A stretch of 64,000 nt of DNA from Candidatus Coatesbacteria bacterium (GCA_030602715.1 JAUVZD010000001.1:364557-428556), one strand, 5' to 3'. Positions 6,066 to 54,659 are shown, numbered from the stretch's first letter. Notes: a model not told the origin generated them from the sequence alone. Made by a program: numbers and translations.

Positions 6066-6067
6066 CT

Positions 6068-7030: not shown

Positions 7031-7073
7031 GCGGGGGAGGGGATTTAGCCCGAAGGGAAATCCACTCTCCCGC
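7031..7073. terminator. GC-rich hairpin between convergent genes
   Basis: GCGGG.GGAG.GGATTT..CCC-GAA-GGG.AAATCC..CTCCCGC imperfect stem between the miaA stop and the convergent 7079 stop. Confidence 0.5.
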
Positions 7074-7078
7074 CTTTG

Positions 7079-7606
7079 CTAATCCAGGGAATATCCTTGA
7101 ACATAAAAATAGAGCAGATTGCGGAAATCCTCGGCAAGCATATTGTCATAGCCCACCACTTCGCCCTGCAGACGGATGGCGCCCTGGGGGCTGACCAGGC
7201 GATAATCGTCCCCGGAATCGTGGGTCAGGAAGAGGAAGTATTCCACGCCGACATCCAGATGAGGCACATCAGTTACTTCCACCGAGTATTTATAGTCGGG
7301 GATGTATCCACCTGGATAAATAATATCTATATAACTGTCCACACGCACATTAATAAGGCTCAGCAACTCCTCCTCCACCTCCACCTCAGCCCGGGTCATC
7401 ACCTGATGTTCCTCCATCACAAAGGGGGTGACCGCAAGCACCTTGCCCAGCACTATCACCTCAGCCATAGCCACCAGGTCGGAAAGCTCCAGTGGTATCT
7501 GCATGGCGGTCGCCGGGGACGCAACCAAGCCCAGCACCAGAACGGCGACGCCGACCTTTAAACATATCTTCCCTGCAAAGGGCATATTCAATCCTTTCTC
7601 CATCAA
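7079..7606 (-). CDS. Hypothetical secreted protein
   Basis: Signal peptide ending SPATA-MQ followed by a beta-rich domain (LSDLVAMAEVIVLGKV...PGG...VGVEYFLFL). Overlaps the rdgB stop. Confidence 0.7.
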   Translation of the reverse strand: MMEKGLNMPFAGKICLKVGVAVLVLGLVASPATAMQIPLELSDLVAMAEVIVLGKVLAVTPFVMEEHQVMTRAEVEVEEELLSLINVRVDSYIDIIYPGGYIPDYKYSVEVTDVPHLDVGVEYFLFLTHDSGDDYRLVSPQGAIRLQGEVVGYDNMLAEDFRNLLYFYVQGYSLD

Positions 7607-8229
7607 ATCTCTCCTTTTTCGGCAAGCTCCCTCAGCTTCTTGGCGGCGGAGCTGAAGGCTTTGAACCGATGACTTATGGCGTTCTTCTCCTGCGGTGAAA
7701 TCTCCGCCAGGGTCTTTCCCGTCTGGGGGAGAAGGAACATAGGGTCGTAACCGAAACCGCTCTCCCCCCTGCTCTCCGTGGCGATAACTCCCTCAAGTGA
7801 GCCCTCAACGGTAAAGAGAACCTCATCCGGAACTGCAGCCACAACAGCGGTGCGGAAGCGAGCCCCTCGCATTCCCTCCGCCACGCCCTCCATCTCCGCG
7901 AGCAGTTTTCTACAGTTATCCGCATAGCTCGCCTCAGGACCCGCATAACGGGAGGAATAGACCCCTGGAGCCCCATCCAGAGCCTCCACCTCCAGGGCGG
8001 TATCATCCGCCAGGGTCAACCTCCCCAGCACCTTCGCTACCGAAAGCGCCTTGATCTGTGCATTCTCCTCAATTGTCGCCCCGGTCTCAGCCACCTCCTC
8101 CCAGGCGGGAAGCTCCTCGGGGCTCAACAGACGAATATCGCCGCCGGGCTCAAGTATTGCCCTTATCTCCCCCACCTTATCCATGTTGTGGGTAGCCAAA
8201 GCCACCTCAATAATCCCCTCGGGGGTCAT
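7603..8229 (-). CDS. rdgB: Non-canonical purine NTP pyrophosphatase RdgB/Ham1
   Basis: LATHNMDK, ETGATIEENA, ADDTALEV, APGVYSSRYAG, GFGYDPMF, KNAISHR. Confidence 0.96.
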   Translation of the reverse strand: MTPEGIIEVALATHNMDKVGEIRAILEPGGDIRLLSPEELPAWEEVAETGATIEENAQIKALSVAKVLGRLTLADDTALEVEALDGAPGVYSSRYAGPEASYADNCRKLLAEMEGVAEGMRGARFRTAVVAAVPDEVLFTVEGSLEGVIATESRGESGFGYDPMFLLPQTGKTLAEISPQEKNAISHRFKAFSSAAKKLRELAEKGEI

Positions 8230-8954
8230 TTAATCTCCAGACCTATCGCTTTCATCTGAACGCTGCTGATCTGCTTAATGCCTGAGAGGGCAAGTTCAAT
8301 AACTTCATCTACCAGCTGTTTGCTAAAAGGGGCTGTCTCTCCGCTTCCCTGAAATTCCACCAGCTCCCCTTTGGATGTTGCCACCACATTGAAGTCCGCC
8401 GATGCGCTACTGTCCTCCTCATAGTCCACATCCAACAACAATATCCCCTCAACCAACGCACAGCTCACCGCACCCACATACTCCTTCAGGGGCCATTCAT
8501 TCAGCCATCCCTCGTCTCGCTTTCCGCTCAGGGCGAGGTTGAGGGCTACAAGTGCGCCGTTAACCGCTGCGGTTCGGGTGCCTCCGTCGGCCTGGATGAC
8601 ATCGCAGTCCACCCACACGGTATTTTCGCCCAGCTTCTTCAGGTCGGTAACCGCCCTCAGTGACCGCCCCACCAGCCGTCCTATCTCCGAACTACGCCCG
8701 CTGACAAAAGCCCTTATGCGGTCCCTTATCTTCCTGCCACCACCGGCAGTGGGGAGCATATCGTATTCGGCTGTTATCCAGCCCCGCCCCTGACCCCTAA
8801 GCCAGTTGGGAACTCCCATCTCCACCACCGCGGTGCACACCACCCAGGTATCGCCCATACGCACCAGGGCACTCCCGTCGGGGTGCATCAGATAGTTAGG
8901 GACAATCTCCAGAGGGCGCAATTCATCTTCCGCCCTTCCATCCTTGCGCTCCAT
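8226..8954 (-). CDS. rph: Ribonuclease PH
   Basis: GRAEDELRP, GWITAEYDMLP, EIGRLVGRSLR, DVIQADGGTRTAA. Canonical rph-rdgB pair. Confidence 0.97.
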   Translation of the reverse strand: MERKDGRAEDELRPLEIVPNYLMHPDGSALVRMGDTWVVCTAVVEMGVPNWLRGQGRGWITAEYDMLPTAGGGRKIRDRIRAFVSGRSSEIGRLVGRSLRAVTDLKKLGENTVWVDCDVIQADGGTRTAAVNGALVALNLALSGKRDEGWLNEWPLKEYVGAVSCALVEGILLLDVDYEEDSSASADFNVVATSKGELVEFQGSGETAPFSKQLVDEVIELALSGIKQISSVQMKAIGLEIK

Positions 8955-9013
8955 ACTCCTCCAATCATGTATGATGATATGCCATTAAATCTTCCTCATC
9001 TTTTCTCGCAGGC

Positions 9014-9829
9014 TCACAGCTCCAGCCCCTCAATCTCCGCCAGCTGGACATCAATGTGCTCCTGGTCCAGGAAGGTGCAGGCAACTTTATTAAAATCGTG
9101 GGGAATATCGGTGACGAAGAAGAGCCGACCGGAGGACTCCTTGCGTTTCGGGGAGAGCTCTCCCTGCTCCTTCAATATTTGCTCCACTTCAACCGCCGCC
9201 TGATAGGCGGAATCTATCAGCTTCACTCCACTCCCCATGACCTCACGGATGACCGGCTTTAGCAGGGGATAATGGGTGCAGCCCAGAACCAGGGTATCTA
9301 TCCCCCTGTCCAGCAGGGGGTCCAGATAGCGTTTGGCTATCAGGTAAGCCACCTCATCTGCATACCAGCCCTCCTCCACCAGGGGGACGAAGAGGGGGCA
9401 GGCACGCTCAAAGACGGTGGCGGAATCATCCAGCCGGTGAATGGCGTCAAAATAAGCCCTGCTGGCGATGGTGGTCTTGGTGCCGATCACCCCCACCTGC
9501 TTGGTCTTGGTGGTCTCCACCGCACCCAGGGCTCCACTATTCACCACCCCGACAATCGGCACCGGGGATTTCTCCTGCAGAACGTCCATAGCCACTGAGG
9601 AGGCGGTGTTGCAAGCCACCACCACCAACTTCAGGTCAAAGCGAGAGAGGAAGCCAAGACATTCCAGGGCGAATCGGCGCACCGTCTCCTCGGATTTGTT
9701 GCCGTAGGGCAGGCGAGCGGTATCCCCCAGATAGACGGTGTCCTCGTAGGGCAGGCGGGAGAAGACCTCCTTTGCCACGGTAAGTCCTCCCACACCGGAA
9801 TCAAATATGCCTATAACCCCCTCCATCAT
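9014..9829 (-). CDS. murI: Glutamate racemase
   Basis: IFDSGVGGLTV, DTARLPYG, VACNTAS, LGCTHYP. Confidence 0.97.
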   Translation of the reverse strand: MMEGVIGIFDSGVGGLTVAKEVFSRLPYEDTVYLGDTARLPYGNKSEETVRRFALECLGFLSRFDLKLVVVACNTASSVAMDVLQEKSPVPIVGVVNSGALGAVETTKTKQVGVIGTKTTIASRAYFDAIHRLDDSATVFERACPLFVPLVEEGWYADEVAYLIAKRYLDPLLDRGIDTLVLGCTHYPLLKPVIREVMGSGVKLIDSAYQAAVEVEQILKEQGELSPKRKESSGRLFFVTDIPHDFNKVACTFLDQEHIDVQLAEIEGLEL

Positions 9830-33674: not shown

Positions 33675-34138
33675 TCCGGGCGTATGTAATGTACGCGGTG
33701 AACGCGGTCGTAATCGTCGCGGCGGCCAGCTTCCTTCCGGGTCTGGGCGCGCGCATCGCCGAGATGACGGGCCTGGGGCAGACCTTCGTCGGGAGCCTGT
33801 TTATCGCGATGTCCACGTCGCTGCCGGAGCTGGTCGTAACGATGGCGACGGTACGCATCGGCGCGATTGACTTGGCCCTGGGGAACCTCTTCGGGAGCAA
33901 CCTATTCAACGTCGCGATTCTGGCGGCCGACGACATCATCTACACAAAAGGCCCTATTCTGGCCGACGTCTCGAGCAACCACCTGATAACCGCCGCGTCG
34001 GCGATTGCGATGACGGCGGCGGTGGTCGTAGGCCTGACCTACCGAACTATAAAGCAACCGTTCCTCCTGGCCTGGGATTCAATGGGCATCCTCGCGATCT
34101 ACTTCGTCAGCACCGTGATGTTGTATACGTTGAGGTGA
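33675..34138 (+). pseudogene. 3' half of a Na+/Ca2+ (CaCA) antiporter
   Basis: Alpha-repeat STSLPELVV...GNLFGSNLFN. Only about 5 TMs and no credible start. Abrupt switch to CpG-rich codons near 33675. Confidence 0.75.
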
Positions 34139-34256
34139 ATATATTTAAAGAAGCACATCCATCATTTATGTTGACTTGTAGTTAGTAATATGCTAAATTA
34201 GTAAAAAATCTAGGTTTGAATTTAGAATAACTCATTATTACTTAGGGGGCTAAGAT

Positions 34257-35795
34257 ATGCCAGAATGGGTTGTGGAGCTATTAAGCATTTTAAAATGGCC
34301 CGCCTGTGTGGCGTTCATTGTAATAATCGCCCTCCTATTATTCAAGAAGGGGATACTCAAACGTTTAAATTCGATTAAGCAAGTTAAGTTTAAAAAAGGA
34401 GACTCTGAGGCTAAAGTAGATTTAGGAAAAGACGAACTCGAAACGGAACAACTAACCGAATCTAAACCTAAACTAATAAACGAAGAAGCCCCGGCGAAAG
34501 AAGAAATACCAAAGAAGCCGAAACCGGAAAAGCCGAAAGATTGGTTTTCCGAAATGATTATAGCCTTTATTAATAGGGATACCGATAAAGCTAAAGAAGC
34601 ATATGGAAAATTGCAAAAATCGGAGAAAGAAGAAATACCGAAATTGAAGAACGAAGTTATTTACCAATCTAATCTATATATGTACGGCATAGATTCCGCC
34701 GGTCTAGAAAATTTATACGAATTAGCTAAAAACGAAAAAGTATCCGCGTTTGCTTGGTATAGGATAGGTATGTGCTACGAGAAAAACGGCGAATTAGAAA
34801 AAGCTTGCTCTGCTTACGAAAACGCCGTCGAAAAAACCGATAATGACGATCAATACATCCGATATATTATAGAATTGGCCAACTGCTTATACTTAAACGG
34901 TAATAAACTAGAAGCTTTTAATAGATTAGCGGATTCCAGCCTATTGACTTCAGATTCGGATAATGTTTATAAAGTATACGAAGCATTAGGGAAACTATAC
35001 GGAAAAGAAAACGACCCGCTATCACGTGCTCTCGCTCTTGAATTAGCGTTAGAAAATAACCCTTCTAAATCCGGCGTAAAATTTGATACCGCATATTCAT
35101 ATAGCGATGCCGATTTACCATTACTCTCTATGTTACATTATAAAAACCTATTAAATATTAAACCTGAAAATCGTATTGCTACTAATAACTTAGGAGTATT
35201 TTACGACAAATTGGGCCTAAATATAAAATCCGTCGATTGTTTCAGGAAAGCCGCTGATAACGAATTACCGCTCGCTTTAGGTAATCTTTCTAAAATATAC
35301 TCAAGTTCCGGCTTTAAAAGAGAAGCTATGGAGTTAAATGAAAAGGCTAAAAAACTGGAGAATATCCCCGGCCCAATAGCCGAAGCCATTACCGCTTTAT
35401 CTAATAAGGAGGAGAAAGAGGAAGAAACGGAAACTAAATTATTATCAACAGCGTTGGAAGAACAACGGTTTTTGCGGCAATTCGCGAAAGCGTATATACA
35501 GAAAACCGATACTATCCCTAAAATAAAAGGTATTTGGCAAATACCGGAAAAAGGGGAATTAACTATTGAACAAAACGATAATATCATAAATGGTTTATCA
35601 GAATGGGATAATAAGAAATTCGAAATCGAAGGTAAGCTAAAAAACCGTGGTCTATTATTTAAGACCTCAGAATATAGTTACAGTTGGAAATTCGGTAAAG
35701 GATTCGGTATCGTTTCGGATAATCAACAAGTAATCAACGCCATGTTAGTATCCGGTAACGAAGTCGACTTCTTGAAGCTAACTAAGTCCGATTAA
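34257..35795 (+). CDS. AT-rich membrane-anchored TPR-like protein
   Basis: N-terminal TM, TPR-like repeats (AWYRIGMCYEKNG, ATNNLGVFY). Upstream TTGACT-17-TAAATT promoter and GGGG RBS. Confidence 0.75.
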   Translation: MPEWVVELLSILKWPACVAFIVIIALLLFKKGILKRLNSIKQVKFKKGDSEAKVDLGKDELETEQLTESKPKLINEEAPAKEEIPKKPKPEKPKDWFSEMIIAFINRDTDKAKEAYGKLQKSEKEEIPKLKNEVIYQSNLYMYGIDSAGLENLYELAKNEKVSAFAWYRIGMCYEKNGELEKACSAYENAVEKTDNDDQYIRYIIELANCLYLNGNKLEAFNRLADSSLLTSDSDNVYKVYEALGKLYGKENDPLSRALALELALENNPSKSGVKFDTAYSYSDADLPLLSMLHYKNLLNIKPENRIATNNLGVFYDKLGLNIKSVDCFRKAADNELPLALGNLSKIYSSSGFKREAMELNEKAKKLENIPGPIAEAITALSNKEEKEEETETKLLSTALEEQRFLRQFAKAYIQKTDTIPKIKGIWQIPEKGELTIEQNDNIINGLSEWDNKKFEIEGKLKNRGLLFKTSEYSYSWKFGKGFGIVSDNQQVINAMLVSGNEVDFLKLTKSD

Positions 35796-35853
35796 CTATG
35801 ATACGACATATTAAAGCCCTCTTTCTATAACAATATACTCTCTCTTCATAAGG

Positions 35854-35910
35854 TTGCGTACTCTCGCGATAGACTGGGGCGAAGCCCGCGTGGGCCTCGC
35901 GATGACCGCG
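35854..35910 (+). pseudogene. 5' fragment of Holliday junction resolvase-like RuvX/YqgF
   Basis: LRTLAIDWGEARVGLAMT matches the YqgF N-terminus. Similarity stops after about 18 codons, at the duplicated block. Confidence 0.65.
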
Positions 35911-35916
35911 GCGCCC

Positions 35917-36421
35917 GCTTCGACTGGGGAGACAAGAACGTATCCGCCGCTTCGATGGAGTATTATCTGGTCGGCGGTAAATCTCTGTCCGGACCTTTCG
36001 AGGGCGAAGATTGTATCCCCTTCAAACAGTCCTCTTATCCACAAACACACTGTTATCAAAGGGATTCTCCGAAGTGTAGCCCATCTTTCTAAAGTGCTCC
36101 CGACGGTGCTCTATCAGCTTCCTGCGCCCCATCTTCATCAGGGGCTTGAGATGCCCCAGGATTGCTTCCTTCAGCGCCTTTGCTGAAGCCTCATAGTCGG
36201 TATGAGCTCCGCCCAGCGGCTCCTGAACCACCTCATCCACCACCCCCAGCTTGAACAGGTCCCGGGCGGTAATCCTGAGTATTCGCGAGCTCTCCGGGGC
36301 TTCCGCCCTATCCCGCCACAGTATGGCGGCGCAACCCTCAGGGGATATGACCGAATAGTAGGCGTTTGAAAGTATCAGCACCACATTGCCGACGCCGATG
36401 CCCAAAGCCCCCCCACTTCCC
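35917..36421 (-). repeat. Diverged second copy of the accA 3' end plus about 100 bp of downstream DNA
   Basis: Aligns to 38286-38790 at an offset of 2369 nt. 16 substitutions counted by eye; 9 of the 11 in the coding part are synonymous. Confidence 0.95.
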
Positions 36422-39426: not shown

Positions 39427-40332
39427 TCAGTCGAACAGTCTTCCTTGTTTTTGAAAATCGGCGATACGCTTATCTGCCAATTGACAATATTTTTTATCTA
39501 TCTCATACCCGACAAATTTTCTTTCTAATCCCAAAGCGGCAATAGCCGAAGCCCCACTGCCCATAAAAGGGTCAAGGACAACATCGCCATTGAAAGTATA
39601 TAGTTGGGTCAATCTATATGGTAGCTCTATCGGAAAAGGAGCAGGATGACCAACTTTTTTCGCCGACTCCGGCTTGAAACTCCAAATGCTTTTGGTGAAC
39701 TCTAGAAATTCGTCTCGGGAGATAGTATCTTTACGATCACCCATCTTCTTCCTGGAAAAAGAACCTTTGGAGAATACCAAGATATATTCGTGGATATCTC
39801 GCAGAGTGGGATTTGAAGCCGAAAGCCAACTTCCCCACGCAGTAGAGGGACTTGAGCTCTCCGCCTTGTTCCAAATTATCTCACCCCGCATAAGAAAGCC
39901 TAAATCAAGCATATCTCGGATTATAAAAATATGGAGGGGGATATAAGGTTTTCTCCCCAGGTTAGCTATGTTAATACACGCCCTTCCGCCGGGTACCAAA
40001 AGGCGATATACTTCCTCCCAAACCCGCTTGAGAAATTCCAGGTATTCCTCCAAGGTCAAATCTTGGTCGTAGTCCTTTCCCACATTGTATGGGGGTGAGG
40101 TCACCATAAGATGTATACAGGAGTCTGGTAACTCATCAATTCTTTCCGATGATTTACAAAGGATTTGGTTCAGGTATTGCTGAGGGACTGGGTTTTCTAC
40201 ATATTCTAATTTCGTTTCTTGAGGCAATCCCTCATACAAACGGCTGGAATAAAAGGAAGAAGAGTCGTGACCTATTCTTCCCGGTGAGCCGAAAGACGAA
40301 GTGCGAGTGTTTCTTTTTTTAGACGAGGACAT
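39427..40332 (-). CDS. Amino (N4-C/N6-A) DNA methyltransferase, beta class; partner of the ThaI-like REase
   Basis: VTSPPY precedes LDPFMGSG; HPAPFP. Start overlaps the REase stop region. Confidence 0.93.
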   Translation of the reverse strand: MSSSKKRNTRTSSFGSPGRIGHDSSSFYSSRLYEGLPQETKLEYVENPVPQQYLNQILCKSSERIDELPDSCIHLMVTSPPYNVGKDYDQDLTLEEYLEFLKRVWEEVYRLLVPGGRACINIANLGRKPYIPLHIFIIRDMLDLGFLMRGEIIWNKAESSSPSTAWGSWLSASNPTLRDIHEYILVFSKGSFSRKKMGDRKDTISRDEFLEFTKSIWSFKPESAKKVGHPAPFPIELPYRLTQLYTFNGDVVLDPFMGSGASAIAALGLERKFVGYEIDKKYCQLADKRIADFQKQGRLFD

Positions 40333-40969
40333 TGCTGTCACCCTCCTTCCAATAGTCAACCCATCTCTTATAAGGATTATATTCTATCTTTGACCTCTGC
40401 CATTGTATATAAATAGCAATGGTCTCTTTGTCTTCTGCTAATGTTTTAAGGGCTTCTCCATCGATCTCCACGCCCCTAGGATTAGTTCCCGGTTTAGGCA
40501 ATTTAATATAGACATCCCTACCTATCCTGTTAAAAAGCTTCCTCTGAACTTTAAGTGGGATATAATAAAATCCCCCGCAATCATTCCAGTTGATTTGAAT
40601 GAAAAGCATATCATAACTAGGGCGGTAATTCTCCCGAAAATCACTTGCTTTCTGGATGTCAACTGTCCAAATTAACTTTACCCCGCTAAACCTAGTACTA
40701 GTAATAGTTTTTATTGCAATCGGACTACCAAACAGTCTTACATCCACCTCTGGCTCGGTTATAGGTATTTCTATATCTACATTTTCCTCGCCGAACTTAT
40801 AAATTAAAAGAGCCACAACTATCCTCTCCCTTAGTGACCCAACCTCCATCCCAATCCTTCCCGCCCTTGAACTCTCAATTTCCGCCAATTGAAATAGAAA
40901 GGGCAAACGTTGTTTGATTCTATAAACAAGTTTTTCATCCTCAAACAATTCTTTAAATTGACCTAGCAT
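40319..40969 (-). CDS. ThaI-family type II restriction endonuclease
   Basis: LPFLFQLAEIESSRAGRIGMEVGSLRERI, EPEVDV, AIKT, KLIWTVD and PGTNPRGVE recalled as ThaI-family motifs. Adjacent to an MTase. Confidence 0.8.
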   Translation of the reverse strand: MLGQFKELFEDEKLVYRIKQRLPFLFQLAEIESSRAGRIGMEVGSLRERIVVALLIYKFGEENVDIEIPITEPEVDVRLFGSPIAIKTITSTRFSGVKLIWTVDIQKASDFRENYRPSYDMLFIQINWNDCGGFYYIPLKVQRKLFNRIGRDVYIKLPKPGTNPRGVEIDGEALKTLAEDKETIAIYIQWQRSKIEYNPYKRWVDYWKEGDSNVLV

Positions 40970-41050
40970 TCTTCACCTCAAAAAATACGGTCAAACCTTC
41001 TCTACTCCAAAAAAAACCCTCCAAAACTTAAAAATAAACATTAGGTTGCA

Positions 41051-45985: not shown

Positions 45986-46360
45986 TCAGTCCAGGTAGAG
46001 GTATTTTCCCGCCAGTTCCTCATCAAAGTCAAAGACATCTGTGAAATCCTCAACGCTGTCCTGCTCGGTCTTGCCCATCAGTCCGTTCTCAACCAGGGTG
46101 AAAACGATATTTCCAAAGTCAACGGTCTCCTTTATACCCCAATTGCGCAGAACATCAGCAGCCAAAGGACCGAAGAGCTCCTTAGCATAACGACTGATAC
46201 CTGAGAGAAACTCCCTTCCGCTAATATGCCGTTTCTCATCAAGTAAATTCAAGGTGTAAGATAAAGCTGCCAGGACAAACCCGTATGCTTCTATCCTATA
46301 ACGGCCGTCCTCTCTTAGAATCTTGTTCAAGACAAGCTTTATCTTCAAGCTATTGAACAT
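45986..46360 (-). CDS. Minf_1886-like conserved hypothetical protein
   Basis: DGRY..EAY.FV..AL, RHISGRE, FGPLA..VL..WGI..T.DFG.IVF.LVE.GLM....DS..DF. Confidence 0.8.
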   Translation of the reverse strand: MFNSLKIKLVLNKILREDGRYRIEAYGFVLAALSYTLNLLDEKRHISGREFLSGISRYAKELFGPLAADVLRNWGIKETVDFGNIVFTLVENGLMGKTEQDSVEDFTDVFDFDEELAGKYLYLD

Positions 46361-46557
46361 CTCTCCCTCACTGTGTATCCAAACCCAAGATTATCATAAC
46401 ACCAAAACAATGAAAAATCAAGCAAGAAAAGACATCCCTCAAAGCACTTCCCCCAAAACCAGGGCAAACTCCATACCGGCACTCAAAATCAACCATACCA
46501 CAATTTCAGCCCCTTTACGATTTTCCAAGACACAATCTTCACGCTTCCAGCCCCGGC

Positions 46558-47838
46558 TCAGTCCCTCTCCCTCAATCCTCGCACCTCCTTCAGCTCACGG
46601 CTCATGGAGCCCAAGGGGTTCCGCGACGGGGGCACATGGTATAACCTCAGAGGTGCGGAAAGCGAGCTCGCCCAGCAGACGGTGAACTCACCAAAGCGGT
46701 CGTTCAGCTTATCTATCGCCGAAATCAGCGCCTTGCGTTTGCGCTCTCTGGCGAAGAGGGGGCGACTCTCCCCGCCGACCGCCAACAGGCTCACGCTCAC
46801 CCCCACCAGCCGCACCGCCCGATGCCTGATGCTTATGCGGGAGAGAACCCGAAGCGCAGTCCGGTATATCTCCCCTCCCTCGTCCACATAGTACTTCATG
46901 GTGGTGAAGCGGGTGACGGTCTCAAAGTCCTTGAAGCGCAGGGTCAGCGCCACCCGCCGTCCCCGGTAGCCCTTCATGCGCAGGCGCCGTCCCACCTGCT
47001 CGGAGAGACCCAGCATCACCCCCCGCACCACCGCCGGGTCATAAGTGTCTGCCCGCAGGGTGATGGAATGACCCACGCTCTTGGCGTCCTCGGGGCGATA
47101 GTAGGGCACCAGCGGAGTGTCGTCCCGCCCCTGCCCCATCAGCTTCAGCCGCTCACCGTTTATGCCGAAAATTCCCCTCAGCACCCGCACCGGGAACCGC
47201 CCCAGCTCCCCGCAGGTGTGGACGCCCCGGGCGCCGAGATGGACGCCCAGCCTCCTGCCGATACCGGGCATCTCCTCAACTGGAAGCTCCTCCAATACCT
47301 TAGGCAAATCCTGGCGGGAAAAGACGGTGCGCCCCCTCGGCTTGACCCAGCCGGAGGCAAGCTTTGCCATCAGCTTGTTGGGAGCCAAGCCCACCGAGCA
47401 AGGCAGTTCCAGCTCCCTGCTCACCGCAGAGAAGACCTCCTCCGCCAGTGCGGTTGCGCCCTTCCTCCCCCCGCCCCGCTCCGCCACCGCCCGGCTCGCC
47501 TCCAGATAGAGCTCGTCTATGGAGGCGACCTCCACCTCCGGTCCGAAGCGCTCCAGCAGCGCCAGCAGGCGGGAGAGGGTGGAGATGTAGCGGGCCGGGT
47601 TTCCGCAGACCACCACCAGATGGGGGCAGAGCCTCCTGGCGTCGCCTACGGGCATCCCCGCCTTGATGCCGTATTCCCGCGCCGGATAGCTGGCGGTAGC
47701 CACCACCGAGCGCCCCTTGGGGTCGCCGGTCACCACCAGGGGCTTCCCTTTCAGCGCGGGATTGACCTTCTCCTCAATGGAGGCGAAGCAGGCGTTCATA
47801 TCCAGATGAAGAATCCAGCGTGGCGGTTGCTCAGACAT
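46558..47838 (-). CDS. dinB: DNA polymerase IV (Y family)
   Basis: HLDMNACFASIE, SYPAREYGI, ASIDE, SVG.APNKLMAKLAS..KP, GIG, SVGHS.T. Confidence 0.96.
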   Translation of the reverse strand: MSEQPPRWILHLDMNACFASIEEKVNPALKGKPLVVTGDPKGRSVVATASYPAREYGIKAGMPVGDARRLCPHLVVVCGNPARYISTLSRLLALLERFGPEVEVASIDELYLEASRAVAERGGGRKGATALAEEVFSAVSRELELPCSVGLAPNKLMAKLASGWVKPRGRTVFSRQDLPKVLEELPVEEMPGIGRRLGVHLGARGVHTCGELGRFPVRVLRGIFGINGERLKLMGQGRDDTPLVPYYRPEDAKSVGHSITLRADTYDPAVVRGVMLGLSEQVGRRLRMKGYRGRRVALTLRFKDFETVTRFTTMKYYVDEGGEIYRTALRVLSRISIRHRAVRLVGVSVSLLAVGGESRPLFARERKRKALISAIDKLNDRFGEFTVCWASSLSAPLRLYHVPPSRNPLGSMSRELKEVRGLRERD

Positions 47839-47879
47839 AAGAACCCCCTCCCCCCCGCCAGAGGCGGGGGAGAGAGGAT

Positions 47880-47908
47880 ATTATACTCTACATTTGTTGA
47901 GCTGTCAA
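47880..47908 (-). promoter_or_regulatory. dinB promoter with candidate LexA operator CAACAAATGTAG (47888-47899)
   Basis: TTGACA-gct-CAACAAATGTAG-ag-TATAAT, the same layout as the lexA promoter. Confidence 0.8.
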
Positions 47909-47952
47909 GGGGGAAAATGGGGGACAAGGTATAGTAGACTATTGAAGAAAAC

Positions 47953-47981
47953 TTGACTAGTATGGAGGATTGTGTTATCTT
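47953..47981 (+). promoter_or_regulatory. Promoter of the AT-rich three-gene island
   Basis: TTGACT-17 nt-TATCTT with TG at the extended -10 position. Confidence 0.55.
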
Positions 47982-48048
47982 TGTTAAAAATATTTGAAGA
48001 TTTATCTAAAGAACATGATAGAATTGCTAATTGTAACTTTAGGAGAAA

Positions 48049-48459
48049 ATGATGATTAAAAAACTCTCAACTTCAGATCCATATAAGTCTATGTGTAGCG
48101 ATTTATATTCGTTAGGAATATTTGACAAAGTTATCAATGGACTACTATCAATAACGGAAAAGAATGACACAGATCAAACGATAATAATTGAGAGGAAATT
48201 TACAAATAACTCTGGAATTGATATAAGTTTTGGATATTACTTCATTCAATGCCTAAATTCCCCCTGTGAGGAAGAACATCTAAAGCATTTCCGAGGTTCT
48301 TTGGAAACCTTTGTAAAACGAAAAACAAAATGTAACTATATGGAGGTAGAACCAATTGTTATTGCTCCGGAATATAGCGATGTTGTTATTAATTTTATTG
48401 ACCAATATAACAGGATACAAAGGAGAAAACCAATAAAACTATTTAGATATGGAGAATAA
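48049..48459 (+). CDS. Hypothetical protein (AT-rich island gene 1)
   Basis: 136 aa with AGGAG RBS. C-terminal IVIAPEYS...IKLFRY resembles the tail of NucS/Mrr-like folds; no clear catalytic motif. Confidence 0.7.
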   Translation: MMIKKLSTSDPYKSMCSDLYSLGIFDKVINGLLSITEKNDTDQTIIIERKFTNNSGIDISFGYYFIQCLNSPCEEEHLKHFRGSLETFVKRKTKCNYMEVEPIVIAPEYSDVVINFIDQYNRIQRRKPIKLFRYGE

Positions 48460-48461
48460 CT

Positions 48462-49499
48462 ATGGGTTCCTTCATTTGTGCCATTTCAGAAAGAGACTGG
48501 AAAATATCAAGAATTAAAGGTATTTATGGCAATAAAATGGGTAAACTTAGTAGAGATGGGTCATACCGTGAATTTCCACTTACAACAAAATACTCTATTA
48601 TAAGGGACCTTGTTGGAATGCAAAAAGGAGACAAGATCTTTTTTCATGTTATAGGCGATAGCAGCGTCCATGGTATCTACATTGTTCGTGAGGAACCCTT
48701 TTATGACACTTCAAAAATTTGGAAGGATGACCACGAAATATTTCCATATCGATTTCTCTTCAAGCCTCACCCTAAATACAAACATCTTTGCAAACAAGAT
48801 GCGAGTATTTCAGTTATTGATTTCTATGAAGTAATCGAACAGCGTATTATTTGGTCTTTGGCCACTCTTGAAAACGAAAGGAATATTGAAGCGCGTAGCG
48901 TTCGTAAAATTGAAGACGGGAAAGAGACAAAGGAGATCCTGAAGCTTCTTCATAGAGATTTCATCATTAACCGAATTAGCACTAATATCAAATTTTTTCC
49001 TATTAAATTACCCACCAATGCTAAACCCCTCAGAGATTGCATTCAAGATATTGGTCGATTTGAGAATTCCATCAAAGCATTGTTTATGTATAAAATTGGG
49101 CAAAATGAACCATCTATTGTCAATATTTTTGGAGCAGTATCTGACTTTATGAATGAAGTATTTATTGCCCAAACTACTAGAAAAAGCATCGACATCCTTT
49201 GCATTCAAAATAATAAACCTAATTCAAGAAGATATATCATTTGCGAGTTTAAAACTGACAAATGCGATATAAAAAGCCTTAGTCAGCTCCTTTATTATAC
49301 GGATCTGTTTAAAAGAAGGGATTTTGTAGACATAGCTAATGATGTAATATTTGGGTGCCTGATCGGTAAGCGTTTTGATCCTGAAGTCATAGAATTTTCC
49401 AAGAAAAGAAATTCTTATGGCATAAACGGTAGTATTTTCCTAATTGAATATACACCAATTGAAAAAGGAACGGATGCAGCTTTCAGGAGGATAGCCTAA
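48462..49499 (+). CDS. EVE/PUA-like domain fused to a PD-(D/E)XK (NucS-like) nuclease
   Basis: N-terminal DW..S...G.YG...GDKIFFH...GIY.V...PFYD...IW....FPYR. C-terminal E...SIDILC...ICEFK...QL..Y. Confidence 0.65.
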   Translation: MGSFICAISERDWKISRIKGIYGNKMGKLSRDGSYREFPLTTKYSIIRDLVGMQKGDKIFFHVIGDSSVHGIYIVREEPFYDTSKIWKDDHEIFPYRFLFKPHPKYKHLCKQDASISVIDFYEVIEQRIIWSLATLENERNIEARSVRKIEDGKETKEILKLLHRDFIINRISTNIKFFPIKLPTNAKPLRDCIQDIGRFENSIKALFMYKIGQNEPSIVNIFGAVSDFMNEVFIAQTTRKSIDILCIQNNKPNSRRYIICEFKTDKCDIKSLSQLLYYTDLFKRRDFVDIANDVIFGCLIGKRFDPEVIEFSKKRNSYGINGSIFLIEYTPIEKGTDAAFRRIA

Positions 49500-50305
49500 T
49501 GCAGAGATTAGGACCTGATAAGGTTTATTTCAAAGAAGGTTCAATCGTAATTTACAACGATGACTTTCTAAGTACAAAGTGCATAGATAAAGGTTGCATT
49601 GATTTGATTGTAACTTCCCCTCCTTACAATGTAGATATAAAGTATGGTTCATATAGCGATGAAATTCCCTATAAAGATTATTTAAAATTTACTTCAGATT
49701 GGCTTACCAAATGCTTTCAATTGTCAAAGGATGACGGAAGGTTTTGCCTAAACATACCATTAGATAAAAACAAAGGAGGACAGCAAAGTGTATGCGCTGA
49801 TATAACAACAATAGCAAAAAAGGTTGGATGGAAATATCACTCTACAATAATTTGGAATGAACAAAACATCTCAAGGAGGACTGCATGGGGTTCTTGGCTT
49901 AGTGCCTCAGCTCCCTATGTAATAGCCCCCGTTGAAGTAATCGTAATACTATATAAAAAGAACTGGAAAAAAACCAGTGGGACCAAACTGTCTGATATCA
50001 CAAAAGAGGAATTTGTTGAGTATACAAATGGAGTTTGGAATTTTAGTGGAGAGAGTAGGAAAAAAATAGGACATCCAGCACCATATCCCATAGAATTACC
50101 AAGAAGATGTATAAAGTTATTCAGCTACACCGGTGATACAATTCTTGATCCCTTTCTTGGAAGTGGAACAACTCTTATTGCTTGTTTGAACACAAAAAGA
50201 AAAGGAATTGGTATAGAAATAGATAAAAAATATTGTGAACTGGCTAAACAAAGACTTATCGCAGAAGGAAAAGTTTTTCAGTTAAGACTTGAATCTACCA
50301 AATAG
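49499..50305 (+). CDS. Amino DNA methyltransferase, beta class
   Basis: VTSPPYN, RTAWGSWLSAS, GHPAPYP, LDPFLGSGTT. Start overlaps the upstream stop. Confidence 0.93.
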   Translation: MQRLGPDKVYFKEGSIVIYNDDFLSTKCIDKGCIDLIVTSPPYNVDIKYGSYSDEIPYKDYLKFTSDWLTKCFQLSKDDGRFCLNIPLDKNKGGQQSVCADITTIAKKVGWKYHSTIIWNEQNISRRTAWGSWLSASAPYVIAPVEVIVILYKKNWKKTSGTKLSDITKEEFVEYTNGVWNFSGESRKKIGHPAPYPIELPRRCIKLFSYTGDTILDPFLGSGTTLIACLNTKRKGIGIEIDKKYCELAKQRLIAEGKVFQLRLESTK

Positions 50306-50320
50306 TCTAATACCCCCCCC

Positions 50321-51514
50321 TCACTCCCCCACCACTGACATAAAGTCGGCGTCCTTCCACAAGCTCACGAAGGCTAAGTCCACACTCGCGTTCGCCAAAA
50401 ACCCGGGGTCTAGCGCACCGGCTTGTTCAAGATACCACAGGGCGGTCTCCTTGCAATCCTGCACCGCACATATCTGCGCCGCCCAGTAATAGACCTGGGG
50501 GATGTCGTCCTTCAGCTCAATAATCCGCTCCATAGTGGTGAGCGCCTGGTCGTATTTTCGCAGGTTGATGAGCGACGCCGCCAGATTATAATGGGCCTCC
50601 ACATTGCCCGGCTCCTCCTCTATCGCCCGCTGGAAATAACCCTCCGCCTCTCCGTCCCTGCCCAACCGGGCAAGGGCAAAGCCCAAAGCCACCCACAAGT
50701 CTATGTCCTCATAGCCCTCAACGGATGCCCGCTCAAAGGCTTCCAACGCCTCATCATACCGCCCGGCCTGGGTGAGGGACCAGCCCTCCCAGAATAGCTC
50801 CTGCGGTCCCCCTTCGCCGAATGTCTTTGCGGTCTCCAGAGCGGACATCCCCCCGTAGGTATCCCCCAGGTTCATACGAGCCCGAGCCAGACCGAACCAG
50901 CCGTCGCCGTCGTGGGGCTCAAAGACCAGATAGCGCTCAAATGCCGATTCTGCTTCCTCGTCCAAGCCGGCGGAGAGCGCCGTCTCCGCCTTCAGCTTCC
51001 AGGCGTCGGGGTTGTCCCCCTCAATGGAGAGAAGCGCCGCCAGGTCGTCAAAGCAATCCTGGTAATATCCCAACTTACTGTTGAAGAACGCCCGATAGTA
51101 GAGCCCCAGAGGATAATCCGGCACCAGGTTCAGGGCGATATCCAGCTCATCCAGAGCCTCACTCACCTCTCCCAGGTGGAAGAGGGCAAAAGCTATATGG
51201 GCGTGGATCTCCGCCATCTTGCCCTCGGGGGCATAGATGACCGCTGTATCCAGACTGTCCAGAGCCTCCTGGAACCGTTTCAGGGAGTTCAGGGCGGCGC
51301 CCTTGTTAAAATACGGCGCCCAGTAGTCCGGGGCGATGTGGATTGCATGGTCGTAGGCTTCAATTGCGGTCTCAAAGCCACCGCTGGAAGCCATGAAGAG
51401 CCCGTAGCGATTGAACTCCTCGGCGTCCCTGTTGACCGCAAAGGAGACGGTCGCCGAAAGCAGAACTAAAAACATAAAGGCGACAACTCTCACATTACCC
51501 TCCATTATAAGCAA
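50321..51514 (-). CDS. Secreted multi-TPR protein
   Basis: Signal peptide and about 9 TPR repeats (YFNKGAAL, AHYNLAASL, YYWAAQICA). Confidence 0.87.
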   Translation of the reverse strand: MLIMEGNVRVVAFMFLVLLSATVSFAVNRDAEEFNRYGLFMASSGGFETAIEAYDHAIHIAPDYWAPYFNKGAALNSLKRFQEALDSLDTAVIYAPEGKMAEIHAHIAFALFHLGEVSEALDELDIALNLVPDYPLGLYYRAFFNSKLGYYQDCFDDLAALLSIEGDNPDAWKLKAETALSAGLDEEAESAFERYLVFEPHDGDGWFGLARARMNLGDTYGGMSALETAKTFGEGGPQELFWEGWSLTQAGRYDEALEAFERASVEGYEDIDLWVALGFALARLGRDGEAEGYFQRAIEEEPGNVEAHYNLAASLINLRKYDQALTTMERIIELKDDIPQVYYWAAQICAVQDCKETALWYLEQAGALDPGFLANASVDLAFVSLWKDADFMSVVGE

Positions 51515-51546
51515 TGATTATACCATATTCAATTGCACAGTATTAT

Positions 51547-51574
51547 AAAAAAACCGCCGGCAGGCGCCAGCGGT
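51547..51574 (-). terminator. Intrinsic terminator of the lexA operon
   Basis: ACCGCTGGC-GCCT-GCCGGCGGT followed by a T run on the minus strand. Confidence 0.7.
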
Positions 51575-51698
51575 CCCTCCACTATCATTCACCCCGACCA
51601 TTCTCAGTCCCCGGGGCTAATCTCTTAGACCAGCTTGAAAAATCTCCCCGACCGACCCGCCGGGCTCAGGCGCTCCTGCTCGCCTTCATGCGCCCGTC

Positions 51699-51950
51699 TC
51701 AGCCCGAGGAGTAACTGCCCTTGATGCGCCACTCCGAGAACTGGGCATCAAAGCATATCTCAAAGATATTGACCCCGTCGCTCACCGCAAAACAGCGCAG
51801 GGGGCGCATCCCCTGCCGGTCCTCCCAGGAATAGGTTACCCTGACGATGTTGTAGCGGATACCGCGCCACTCAAACCAGACCGGACGAATGTTCCCGCCG
51901 TAAAATACAGCCCCCACCCGGATGGGGTCGTTCCAACGTTCCTGCTCCAA
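51699..51950 (-). CDS. Small conserved protein co-transcribed with lexA
   Basis: 83 aa, PVWFEWRGIRY...W...F.VSDG.NIFEICFD...WR. Starts 4 nt after the lexA stop. Confidence 0.8.
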   Translation of the reverse strand: MEQERWNDPIRVGAVFYGGNIRPVWFEWRGIRYNIVRVTYSWEDRQGMRPLRCFAVSDGVNIFEICFDAQFSEWRIKGSYSSG

Positions 51951-51954
51951 CTCT

Positions 51955-52578
51955 TTATCCTCCTACCCCCTCCCTTATGAGACTTACCACTCTGCCGATT
52001 ATGCGCACCTCGTCCTCCACCCCCTCCATCACTATGGGCTTATATCTGGGGTTGGAGGGGATGAGGGTGGGGCGTCCGCCCTTGCGGGAGAAGCGTTTGA
52101 CCGTAGCCTCCTCGCCCAACAGAGCCACCACGATCTGACCCTCCTCGGCGGTCTCGGCACGGCGCACCACCACCAGATCGCCGTCCAGGATGTGGTCGCC
52201 TATCATGCTGTCCCCACTAATCCGCAAGAGAAAGATATCCCCCTGGGGAAGCAGACTGCGGTCTATGGATAGCACTCCCTCCCAGTTCTCCTCCGCCAGC
52301 AGGGGCACCCCGGCAGCCACCCGACCGATGATGGGAAGAGCCCTGGCGCTTACCGCCGGTCCCTTTCCCTCACCTATCACCGAAAGCCCCCGGGAGAGCC
52401 CCGGCTTACTGCGCAGGTAGCCCTTCCTGATCAGGGCCTGCAGATGGTCAAAGACCGCCCGAGGACCGATGCCCAGCACCCCGGCCATCTCCCGCACCGT
52501 GGGGGGCTGACCGTTAGCCTCTATCCACTCCACCACCACCCGATAGACCTCTCCCTGTCTGTGGGTCAAGCCTTCCAT
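51955..52578 (-). CDS. lexA: SOS repressor LexA
   Basis: LT.RQ, PPTVREM, GRVAAG.P cleavage site, GDSMIG (Ser), EEATVKR (Lys). Confidence 0.96.
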   Translation of the reverse strand: MEGLTHRQGEVYRVVVEWIEANGQPPTVREMAGVLGIGPRAVFDHLQALIRKGYLRSKPGLSRGLSVIGEGKGPAVSARALPIIGRVAAGVPLLAEENWEGVLSIDRSLLPQGDIFLLRISGDSMIGDHILDGDLVVVRRAETAEEGQIVVALLGEEATVKRFSRKGGRPTLIPSNPRYKPIVMEGVEDEVRIIGRVVSLIREGVGG

Positions 52579-52618
52579 GGCTACACCTCCATGATAGCTA
52601 AAGAGTGCACATCAGCCG

Positions 52619-52665
52619 AAACATCCGCTCAACAAAAGTATACACAACATCCGTTGCGATGTCAA
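52619..52665 (-). promoter_or_regulatory. lexA promoter with two candidate operators (52645-52656 and 52619-52630)
   Basis: TTGACA-tcg-CAACGGATGTTG-tg-TATACT, plus a downstream GAGCGGATGTTT. AACATCCG is repeated 26 nt apart. Confidence 0.8.
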
Positions 52666-52711
52666 GTAAAATTTTCGCTCCAGGAGCGTTTTTTTGCATT
52701 TTTGGGGCGTT

Positions 52712-52739
52712 AAAAAATCCCTCCCTTGTGGAGGGATTT
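52712..52739 (-). terminator. Intrinsic terminator after the nadB-guaA unit
   Basis: Perfect 10-bp stem AAATCCCTCC/GGAGGGATTT with a T tract on the minus strand. Confidence 0.8.
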
Positions 52740-52767
52740 CTCTTCACCGGCGGGGTAAAAAGCCAGT

Positions 52768-53060
52768 TTAAGTGAGGATGTAGCTTTTAAGCTCGGCGAG
52801 ATATTCAATGTCCTCAAAGGGGTCGGGCAGATCAACCTGTATATACATTTTCATCCGCCCCACACCCGGTTTGAACCATACATATATCGGCAGGACCAGG
52901 GGGAAATCCCCCCAGCTGGAGAGGTGGACGACCATAATGCTGTTATAGATAATCTTATAGCAGTCGGCAAAGGTCCCGGCGGTAACCACGACATCCTCCT
53001 GGGAATCAACGCTGGCGGCGATGGTGATATCAATAGTATCATCTATGGGGAATGAGTTCT
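52768..53060 (-). pseudogene. 3' fragment of a DUF3108/TapB-like secreted protein
   Basis: EDVVVTAGTFADCYKI...VWFKPGVG..KM motif. No signal peptide or N-terminal domain; abuts the guaA stop. Confidence 0.55.
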
Positions 53061-53096
53061 TTTTGCAAAGAGACCCCCCTTCACCCCCCTCAGCCC

Positions 53097-54659
53097 CTAC
53101 TCCCATTCTATGGTCGCCGGGGGCTTGGAGCTGATGTCATAGACAACCCGATTTATACCCCTGACCTCATTTATAATCCTGGTGGAGATGGAGGAAAGTA
53201 AGCTCTCCGGCAGGTGGATCCAGTCGGCGGTCATGCCGTCGGTTGAGGTTACACAGCGCAGGGCGACCACATTCTCGTAGGTGCGGGCGTCGCCCATCAC
53301 CCCCACCGTGCGCACCGGCAGAAGCACCACCAGAGCCTGCCACACTTTATCATAGTAGTCTGCTTTCTTCAACTCCTCTATGGCGATGGCGTCAGCCCGA
53401 CGGACCAGCTCCAACCTCTGTGGGGTCACCTCCCCCAGTATACGTACCGCAAGTCCCGGTCCCGGGAAGGGATGTCTGCCGACTATCTCCTCCGGCAAAT
53501 CCAGTTCCCGCCCCACCTCCCGCACCTCGTCCTTGAAGAGATACTTCAAGGGCTCCACCAGCTCAAGTTCCATCCCCTCCGGCAGTCCGCCCACATTGTG
53601 ATGGCTCTTGATGATGGCGCTGGGACCCTTGACCGAGACCGATTCTATATAATCGGGATAGAGCGTCCCCTGGGCTAGGAAGCGCAAGCCCTGCTCCTTT
53701 CGGGCTCGCTCCTCAAAAACCTCAATGAAGGTATGACCGATGATGCGCCGTTTCTCCTCCGGTTCCTCCACCCCGCTAAGGTTCTTGATGAAGAGCTGGC
53801 CGGCGTCAACGACCTCAAGGGGAAGGATGGCGGATAGATAGCCCTGAACCTGCTCCACCTCCCCCTGGCGCATTAAACCGTTGTCCACCAGAACGCAGAG
53901 CAGTTGTTCGCCAATCGCCCGGCGAATGAGGGTAGCCATCACCGTGGAATCCACCCCGCCGGAGAGGGCGCAGAGCACTTTCTCGGCACCCACCTGCTCC
54001 TTTATCTTCAGAATCGCCATCTCCACAAAGGATTTGACGGTCCAGTCGGGGGAGAGGTTGCAGATTTTGAACAGGAAGTTGGCAAGCATCTGCTTTCCCT
54101 TCTCCGTATGATGCACCTCCGGATGGAACTGCACCCCCAGGATAGTGTCGTCTGCGTTGGCGACAGCCGCATAAGGGGCGTTCTCGGTGTGGGCGATGGC
54201 GTGAAAATCAGGGGGGATAGTCTCAAGCGCATCGCCGTGGCTCATCCACACCCGCTCCACCTCATCCAGACCGGAGAAGAGGGGATGGGCGGTATCCACA
54301 TTGAGGTCGGCAAAACCATACTCCCTTCTCCCGGCGCCTGCCACCTTCCCTCCCAGCTTATGGGATATATACTGCAGACCGTAGCAGATGCCCAGCAGAG
54401 GAATCCCCATCCGCAGGATAAAATCCCCCGGCAGGGGGGCATCCTCATCGGTGACCGAGCTGGGACCCCCGGAGAGGATAATCCCCCCGATGGTGGAGAG
54501 TGGCGCCAGTTCCCCTTTAGTCACCCAATAGGGAAATATCTCCGAATAGATGCCCAACTCCCTGACTTTGCGGGCGATGAGCTGGGTATATTGGGACCCG
54601 AAATCAAGGATAGCCACTCTCTTCGCACCAGCTTCGGATTTACCCTTCAATTCTGCCAT
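53097..54659 (-). CDS. guaA: GMP synthase (glutamine-hydrolysing)
   Basis: LDFGSQYTQLIAR, GICYG, QFHPEV, SGGVDS, LAQGTLYPD, IKSHHNVGGLP, SKPPATIEWE. Confidence 0.98.
   Translation of the reverse strand: MAELKGKSEAGAKRVAILDFGSQYTQLIARKVRELGIYSEIFPYWVTKGELAPLSTIGGIILSGGPSSVTDEDAPLPGDFILRMGIPLLGICYGLQYISHKLGGKVAGAGRREYGFADLNVDTAHPLFSGLDEVERVWMSHGDALETIPPDFHAIAHTENAPYAAVANADDTILGVQFHPEVHHTEKGKQMLANFLFKICNLSPDWTVKSFVEMAILKIKEQVGAEKVLCALSGGVDSTVMATLIRRAIGEQLLCVLVDNGLMRQGEVEQVQGYLSAILPLEVVDAGQLFIKNLSGVEEPEEKRRIIGHTFIEVFEERARKEQGLRFLAQGTLYPDYIESVSVKGPSAIIKSHHNVGGLPEGMELELVEPLKYLFKDEVREVGRELDLPEEIVGRHPFPGPGLAVRILGEVTPQRLELVRRADAIAIEELKKADYYDKVWQALVVLLPVRTVGVMGDARTYENVVALRCVTSTDGMTADWIHLPESLLSSISTRIINEVRGINRVVYDISSKPPATIEWE

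Follow-up and report, generated by a model that had tools for sequence, protein, structure and literature searches.

The window analyzed here is a 64,000-nt stretch of a Candidatus Coatesbacteria bacterium genome (~56% G+C overall) in which lexA and the Y-family polymerase gene dinB lie on the minus strand, each behind a promoter that contains a short inverted repeat. This repeat, CAAC-N4-GTTG at lexA and CAAC-N4-GTAG at dinB, is a candidate operator of the LexA repressor and is the subject of the present analysis. With coordinates counted from the first nucleotide of the window, the features concerned are as follows:

51955-52578, minus strand: lexA, encoding a canonical LexA repressor of 207 aa
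52637-52665, minus strand: lexA promoter, with -35 TTGACA (52665-52660), a 17-nt spacer and -10 TATACT (52642-52637), matching the sigma-70 consensus at 11/12 positions
52656-52645, read on the minus strand: putative lexA operator O1, CAACGGATGTTG, a perfect CAAC-N4-GTTG dyad within the promoter spacer
46558-47838, minus strand: dinB, encoding a Y-family DNA polymerase of 426 aa with Pfam domains IMS, IMS_C and IMS_HHH
47880-47908, minus strand: dinB promoter, with -35 TTGACA (47908-47903), a 17-nt spacer and -10 TATAAT (47885-47880), matching the consensus at 12/12 positions
47899-47888, minus strand: putative dinB operator, CAACAAATGTAG, a CAAC-N4-GTAG dyad in the same register as lexA O1

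In minus-strand orientation, the lexA promoter is TTGACA-tcg-CAACGGATGTTG-tg-TATACT and the dinB promoter is TTGACA-gct-CAACAAATGTAG-ag-TATAAT. Both dyads are 12 bp long and equally spaced from the promoter elements, with the -35 hexamer ending 3 nt before the dyad and the -10 hexamer starting 2 nt after it. An initial annotation of this DNA had proposed a CAAC-N4-GTWG box at an identical position in the two promoters, and its sequences, coordinates and spacings were all confirmed. These promoters are also the top two sigma-70 matches within positions 46400-53200. Across the 64-kb window, the patterns CAACNNNNGTWG and CWACNNNNGTWG each matched solely the lexA and dinB sites, and no other promoter of the window contained the box in scans for exact matches or for matches with ≤ 1 mismatch, in agreement with the earlier remark that the other consensus promoters lack it. 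The ≤ 1 mismatch scan returned 17 matches; besides lexA and dinB, these looked like ordinary coding-type sequence and none lay in a consensus promoter. The motif count is by itself no evidence, because shuffled window sequence yielded ~2 matches, equal to the observed count, and we rejected it as support. The weight of the observation therefore comes from the position of the dyads and their conservation in other genomes.

We compared the window with related loci (labelled L001-L036), which account for ~90 kb of the ~150 kb examined in total. Only two close LexA clusters were found, at 99% (L002) and 78% (L001) identity, and the remainder were at ≤ 53%. DinB identities fell from 96% to 80% (L003) and then to 55% for Candidatus Coatesbacteria DNA polymerase IV (L004/L005), the nearest relative with a name. 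GuaA had relatives at 97%, 76% and 75%, with the next at ≤ 63% and spread over many phyla. Judged by these identities, the host lineage is deep, poorly sampled and related to Coatesbacteria. When the 83-aa protein encoded directly after lexA was used as a probe, it recovered 14 metagenome loci, several of them on contigs of 0.3-1.85 Mb. The same protein found seven genome loci in GTDB (one Coatesbacteria metagenome-assembled genome and six from Geomonas or other Geobacteraceae). We refer to the window and its 78-80% relatives (L001, L003, L009) as clade A. Clade B comprises Coatesbacteria-like loci (L004/5/12/21, L006, L010/11/35 and L013), including Ca. Coatesbacteria B26_G2 and long metagenome contigs, whose LexA proteins are 48-52% identical to that of the window. 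Clades A and B were sister groups in neighbor-joining trees of LexA and of DinB/PolY, so the motif maps onto a single monophyletic group.

Within clade A and its closest strains, the lexA promoter is kept in L001, L002, L007 and L009. The clade-A forms are TTGACA-tcg-CAAC[GGAT or TAAT]GTTG-tg-TATACT at lexA and TTGACA-[g/a]ct-CAAC[AAAT or AGAT]GTAG-[a/t]g-TATAA[T/C] at dinB. The lexA box of L001/L009 is CAACTAATGTTG, which reads CAAC-TAAT-GTTG in place of CAAC-GGAT-GTTG with its arms unchanged. Similarly, the dinB box of L003 and L009 is CAACAGATGTAG, which reads CAAC-AGAT-GTAG in place of CAAC-AAAT-GTAG and retains even the imperfect GTAG arm. Among these relatives (78% for LexA, 80% for DinB), it is the 4-nt spacer and the flanks that vary, and the region 5' of the -35 hexamer is unalignable.

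Clade B has a different layout. Its lexA promoters (L004/5 and L010/11/35) read TTGACA-N17-TATACT-CAACATTAGTTG-AGT, with the dyad directly 3' of the -10 hexamer as part of an 18-bp palindrome, ACTCAAC-N4-GTTGAGT. The rest of the promoter is unalignable with clade A, and the sequence between -35 and -10 differs between the three sub-lineages of clade B. L013 has the same layout with AAACATTAGTTG in place of CAACATTAGTTG, a difference of one mismatch. Orthologous lexA promoters had been put forward at the outset as a test of the motif, and the dyad was found in those of both clades. In L004, a related sequence (ACTCAAC-AGGT-GGTGAGT) lies immediately 5' of dinB. A scan for further regulated genes at ≤ 1 mismatch, covering the window and the ~90 kb of loci, gave additional matches only inside genes or at this L004 site. 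Clade-B lexA promoters also carry a second dyad, GACA-N10-TGTC, over the -35 hexamer and spacer (L004 145-165, with equivalents in L010 and L013).

We then enumerated blindly all 4- and 5-nt inverted dyads with spacers of 0-12 nt in seven upstream regions. CAAC-N4-GTTG was the winner, occurring exactly in 4/7 regions and with ≤ 1 mismatch in 7/7. The ~150 kb of window and loci held one other distinct exact match, which was intragenic. All nine distinct sites consist of two 4-nt inverted arms placed 4 nt apart. By our own rough arithmetic, the chance of an exact 8-base dyad is ~0.003 per 200-nt region, and that of a match with ≤ 1 mismatch at one fixed register is ~4e-4. Taken at these rates, recurrence of the dyad is far beyond chance. 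A chance resemblance of the two window promoters would fit the ~2 matches to the degenerate pattern expected per 64 kb, but we regard it as very improbable given that the dyads occupy one register in two SOS promoters of linked function and that all lexA and dinB promoters of the two clades have them.

The presumed reader of the dyad is encoded next to it. LexA has an N-terminal winged-helix domain (LexA_DNA_bind, PF01726, E = 5.5e-18, residues 1-64) and a C-terminal Peptidase_S24 domain (PF00717, E = 1.5e-33). It aligned over its full length with E. coli LexA structures, with VAAG, GDSM and TVKR corresponding to A84-G85, S119 and K156. By its domains and residues, this LexA is canonical and predicted to be cleavable, having a winged helix-turn-helix, an Ala-Gly cleavage site and a Ser/Lys dyad. 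Its third helix is GPRAVFDHLQAL, as compared to SPNAAEEHLKAL in E. coli, and within it the recognition helix GPRAVFDHL aligns with E. coli SPNAAEEHL. The initial annotation had described this helix as divergent, which holds relative to E. coli but not among neighboring candidate phyla. NC10/Methylomirabilis-type LexAs have a near-identical helix (PRSVFDHLKAL), so it is not peculiar to the window genome. Coatesbacteria-like LexAs have VRGAYDHI at this place.

Based on these comparisons, we consider it likely that CAAC-N4-GTTG is the operator of LexA in this lineage. We favor an operator because the dyad sits inside the core promoter in both layouts (within the -35/-10 spacer for clade A, across the start site for clade B), LexA is predicted to be cleavable, and the cassette described below is LexA-autoregulated in Geobacter. 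The proposal that CAAC-N4-GT(T/A)G serves as the LexA operator of lexA and dinB gains strong support from the substitution footprint and the recurrence in clade B, and further support from the blind ranking and the canonical LexA. We infer LexA binding, repression and damage induction from the observed sequences, positions, conservation, domains and catalytic residues. A LexA dimer would bind the dyad in the lexA and dinB core promoters and exclude RNA polymerase, such that lexA would be autoregulated and dinB repressed. Upon DNA damage, filaments of RecA on single-stranded DNA would provoke self-cleavage of LexA at the Ala-Gly bond and both promoters would fire, following the general model of LexA repression and cleavage (PMC3323433). 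The GTAG arm at dinB, kept in all three clade-A genomes, suggests, if speculatively, an operator that is deliberately weaker.

Several observations weigh against an operator. The clade-A promoters are well conserved from -35 to +10, and the footprint signal there amounts to 2-4 substitutions; because substitutions within clade A are few, clade B supplies most of the independent weight. The evidence concerns one cassette (lexA, imuB-C and dinB) in two related clades, and a duplication could have given rise to the promoters of lexA and dinB, which would then not be independent. No box was found at L033, a 51% DinB relative, where the gene stands alone; L033 and L034 are uninformative on the motif because of this stand-alone, box-free 51% DinB gene. 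Finally, NC10 LexA has nearly the same recognition helix and a promoter dyad with ATAC arms. Therefore, the sequence of the helix alone does not explain the preference for the outer bases.

Shared ancestry leads to another explanation, in which common descent or a shared strong-promoter design would account for the dyad. The dinB promoter would have been copied from that of lexA when the cassette was split, with no protein reading the dyad. The two promoters do have in common their -35 hexamer, spacer length, -10 hexamer and an upstream ATTTT/C-rich stretch, and the window contains no more matches than chance predicts. However, substitutions between relatives hit the 4-nt spacer and flanks and spare the arms, and in clade B the 18-bp palindrome lies outside the -35/-10 spacer of otherwise different promoters. 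The dyad also ranks first overall, and a duplicated promoter would still bear a working operator. We therefore judge this explanation to be decidedly unlikely.

The position of the dyad further bears on whether it acts in RNA, where a hairpin in the leader could alter stability, termination or translation. The clade-B dyad follows the -10 hexamer and would be partly transcribed, and a terminator scan picked out a weak hairpin at CGCAACGGATGTTGTG, with T-rich sequence after it. In contrast, the clade-A dyad is outside the transcript because it is located between the -35 and -10 hexamers, ahead of every plausible start site, and the stem would have only 4-6 bp. A role in RNA is thus scarcely credible, and LexA binding to DNA remains the preferred explanation.

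The initial annotation had also reported a second site downstream of the lexA -10 hexamer. Two strings in this region were considered:

52630-52619, minus strand: the reported second site, GAGCGGATGTTT, present but a poor match to the motif and not conserved
52641-52630, minus strand: candidate O2, ATAC-TTTT-GTTG(AG), over the -10 hexamer and start site, including a GTTGAG half-site at 52628-52633

The counterpart of GAGCGGATGTTT is GAGCGAGTGTTT in the 99% strain L002 and GAGCTGGATAAC in the 78% relative L001/L009. The string reported earlier is therefore present, but we rejected it as an operator since its sequence is not kept in these relatives. Candidate O2 lies within TATACTT(T/A)TGTTGAG, which is kept in the window, L002, L007 and L001/L009. 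It has one mismatch to C[AT]AC-N4-GT[AT]G and occupies the position of the clade-B operator, directly after TATACT. Tentatively, from its sequence and placement, O2 may be a weak second operator or the remnant of one.

We next considered the genes between lexA and dinB, which define the cassette to which the two promoters belong:

51699-51950, minus strand: 83-aa gene directly after lexA, probably encoding a standalone ImuB-C
50321-51514, minus strand: gene for a tetratricopeptide-repeat (TPR) protein matching Pfam TPR families, between the lexA-imuB-C pair and dinB
48049-50305, plus strand: AT-rich island (33-34% GC) with a 136-aa open reading frame (ORF), a NucS_C-like nuclease and an N4/N6 DNA methyltransferase, a putative restriction-modification system
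47843-47879, minus strand: G+C-rich hairpin of 17 bp in the dinB leader that takes in the Shine-Dalgarno sequence

The 83-aa gene is next to lexA in every related locus. Its product matched DUF6504 weakly (E = 0.0015, under the Pfam cut-off), and the literature searched here yielded nothing on DUF6504. The AlphaFold2 model of the protein is all-beta, with a predicted local distance difference test score of 77, and a fold search of the PDB gave no significant match. With the product of the ORF that separates lexA from the polymerase gene in Geomonas, it shares 41% identity. The protein is probably a standalone ImuB-C, which would make the locus a lexA-imuB-C-polY mutagenesis cassette. This type of operon ("GeoPolY-like") was described by Timinskas and Venclovas (PMC6511836). 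The G. sulfurreducens lexA-imuB-C-polY genes are reported to be damage-induced as a single transcription unit (PMC6511836), and Geobacter LexA is reported to bind the promoters of this cassette and to autoregulate it (PMC6511836, PMC8565304).

The same cassette raises the prospect that another DNA-binding protein, either a different regulator or the 83-aa protein itself, reads the dyad in place of LexA. The 83-aa gene is always co-encoded with lexA, and the link between LexA and the site comes from sequence comparison. However, LexA proteins as a rule autoregulate by way of a dyad at the lexA promoter, LexA is the protein reported to bind the promoters of this cassette in Geobacter, and the type of dyad shifts between lineages together with the LexA clade. 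The all-beta 83-aa protein resembles an ImuB-C-like polymerase accessory and has no recognizable DNA-binding motif. A reader other than LexA is accordingly unlikely.

The order lexA, imuB-C-like gene, polY is uninterrupted in clade B, where the genes form one operon, and in Geomonas. The window retains this order with ~3.9 kb inserted before polY. From this arrangement, the window locus is probably derived from a lexA-imuB-C-polY cassette that was split by the TPR gene and the restriction-modification island. After the split, dinB would have kept its SOS control through a promoter of its own.

How the proposed operator relates to known LexA boxes determines the extent to which it is new. The Gram-positive LexA (DinR) box is GAAC-N4-GTTC in Bacillus subtilis and Mycobacterium tuberculosis (PMC3323433). 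The dyads described here share with it two 4-nt arms, a 4-nt gap and the inner core AAC-N4-GTT, as well as their overlap with lexA and translesion polymerase core promoters and a canonical winged helix-turn-helix and S24 LexA as presumed reader. They differ in the outer base pair, which is C/G instead of G/C (arms CAAC/GTTG, with GTAG at dinB), and in the clade-B flanks that lengthen the symmetry to ACTCAAC...GTTGAGT. No exact GAAC-N4-GTTC was noticed by eye in the lexA and dinB promoters, where no pattern search for it was made. In the B. subtilis box, the outer G is an important determinant of binding, and the two specificities are, to judge by their arms, probably distinct. CAAC-N4-GTTG falls outside the strict GAAC box because its arm sequence differs, but it would function in the same manner. 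By its sequence and geometry, it belongs to the xxAC-N4-GTxx class as a one-base-pair variant and is not a radically new box. The cyanobacterial LexA box, which is of the GTAC type, is in this class as well; its geometry is alike, whereas its arms (GTAC versus CAAC) differ at both outer positions, the outermost pair being G/C as in the Gram-positive box.

The Geobacter sulfurreducens LexA box is GGTT-N10-AACC (Jara et al. 2003, as summarised in PMC8565304 and PMC6511836). Geobacter resembles the window in having a cassette of lexA, a small ImuB-C-like gene and a Y-family polymerase gene behind a promoter dyad. Unlike in the window, the Geobacter operator is an 18-bp GGTT-N10-AACC; the window cassette is split, and its dinB has its own operator-bearing promoter. 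GGTT-N10-AACC was absent from the clade A and B promoters and was seen in Geomonas lexA promoters, and the L014 lexA promoter has GTT-N10-AAC, the inner core only of the Geobacter box. The GTTG...CAAC of some Geobacter-type boxes was considered as an everted form of the motif and dropped, as its position is variable in Geomonas. In Geobacter, LexA is not known to bind at recA. By analogy, the regulon in the present lineage may be minimal, as reported for Geobacter. The recA, uvrA, ssb and ruvAB genes were found neither in the window, where mutS, mutL, nadB, guaA and others were identified instead, nor in the stretches of related loci examined here. In the window, mutS and mutL are adjacent (937-5285, plus strand) and have no CAAC-N4-GTTG box upstream. 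E. coli LexA is similar in protein family, catalytic residues and the logic of an operator over a promoter (PMC3323433), but its SOS box, CTGT-N8-ACAG, is unrelated in sequence and spacing.

Perfect dyads were also present in lexA promoters of other lineages. These are CTATAC-GTTT-GTATAG in NC10/Methylomirabilis (L028, ~2040-2060), GTCTAC-ATCT-GTAGAC in L032 (~2950-2970), GTGTAC-ACAT-GTACAC in L036 (~325-345), which is a lexA-imuB-C-...-polY locus, and TTGTTA-CCA-TAACAA in L030 (~2930-2950). From sequence and position, they look like undescribed LexA boxes, one lineage each. The dyads of NC10, L032, L036 and Geomonas occupy promoter positions of an analogous kind to those in clades A and B. 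A literature search, incomplete in its coverage, found no pairing of LexA with CAAC-N4-GTTG or with Coatesbacteria, in line with the initial annotation, which had put the variant forward as a candidate novel box.

On balance, we favor the view that CAAC-N4-GTTG represents an undescribed LexA specificity which, together with the CTAC, ATAC and GTAC dyads of neighboring uncultured lineages, forms a series with only the two outer base pairs changing around an invariant AC-N4-GT. If so, pairing this series with the known recognition helices would make it possible to map the LexA helix-to-base code directly. The LexA motif has changed repeatedly, which is unusual for a global regulator, with 17 motifs on record by 2021 (PMC8565304). 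The motif would depart from the Gram-positive and cyanobacterial boxes at the outer pair only, and would thus be an intermediate step in the history of LexA motifs, in a candidate phylum without a cultured member. The locus would also show an SOS cassette keeping its regulation after being broken up by mobile defense genes, in that the polymerase gene, once split from lexA-imuB-C, retained or re-acquired a LexA-type promoter. In practice, CAAC-N4-GTTG would offer a search pattern for reconstructing SOS regulons in Coatesbacteria-like genomes. The gain is incremental, mainly for specialists in SOS evolution and for genome annotation, and is unsurprising given the plasticity of LexA motifs.

Several minor features of the locus are apparent from the comparison. 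The dinB-leader hairpin was absent from the 80% relatives L003 and L009; in the window it could provide additional translational control. In L009, an ORF of similar size (392 aa) lies at the position of the TPR gene, and ORFs of matching sizes (288 and 255 aa) lie at the position of the island (7769-9399). L003 has another restriction-modification pair, a methyltransferase and an EcoO109I-like protein, just 5' of dinB (391-1388), where the window has its island. The cassette site may be an insertion hotspot for defense-type genes. In L036, an AAA_15/AAA_21 ATPase gene (1826-3624) lies between imuB-C and polY, and in L033 a methyltransferase gene (5358-7230) follows polY. Just 3' of dinB, the window has a small protein gene of the Minf_1886 family, a Planctomycetes/Verrucomicrobia-type family (45986-46360, minus strand). 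L003 has a 124-aa ORF without a recorded family match at the same place. Elsewhere in the window, stretches at 5001-6000, 34001-36000 and 40001-41000 have a low G+C content (38-41%) and may be other horizontally acquired islands.

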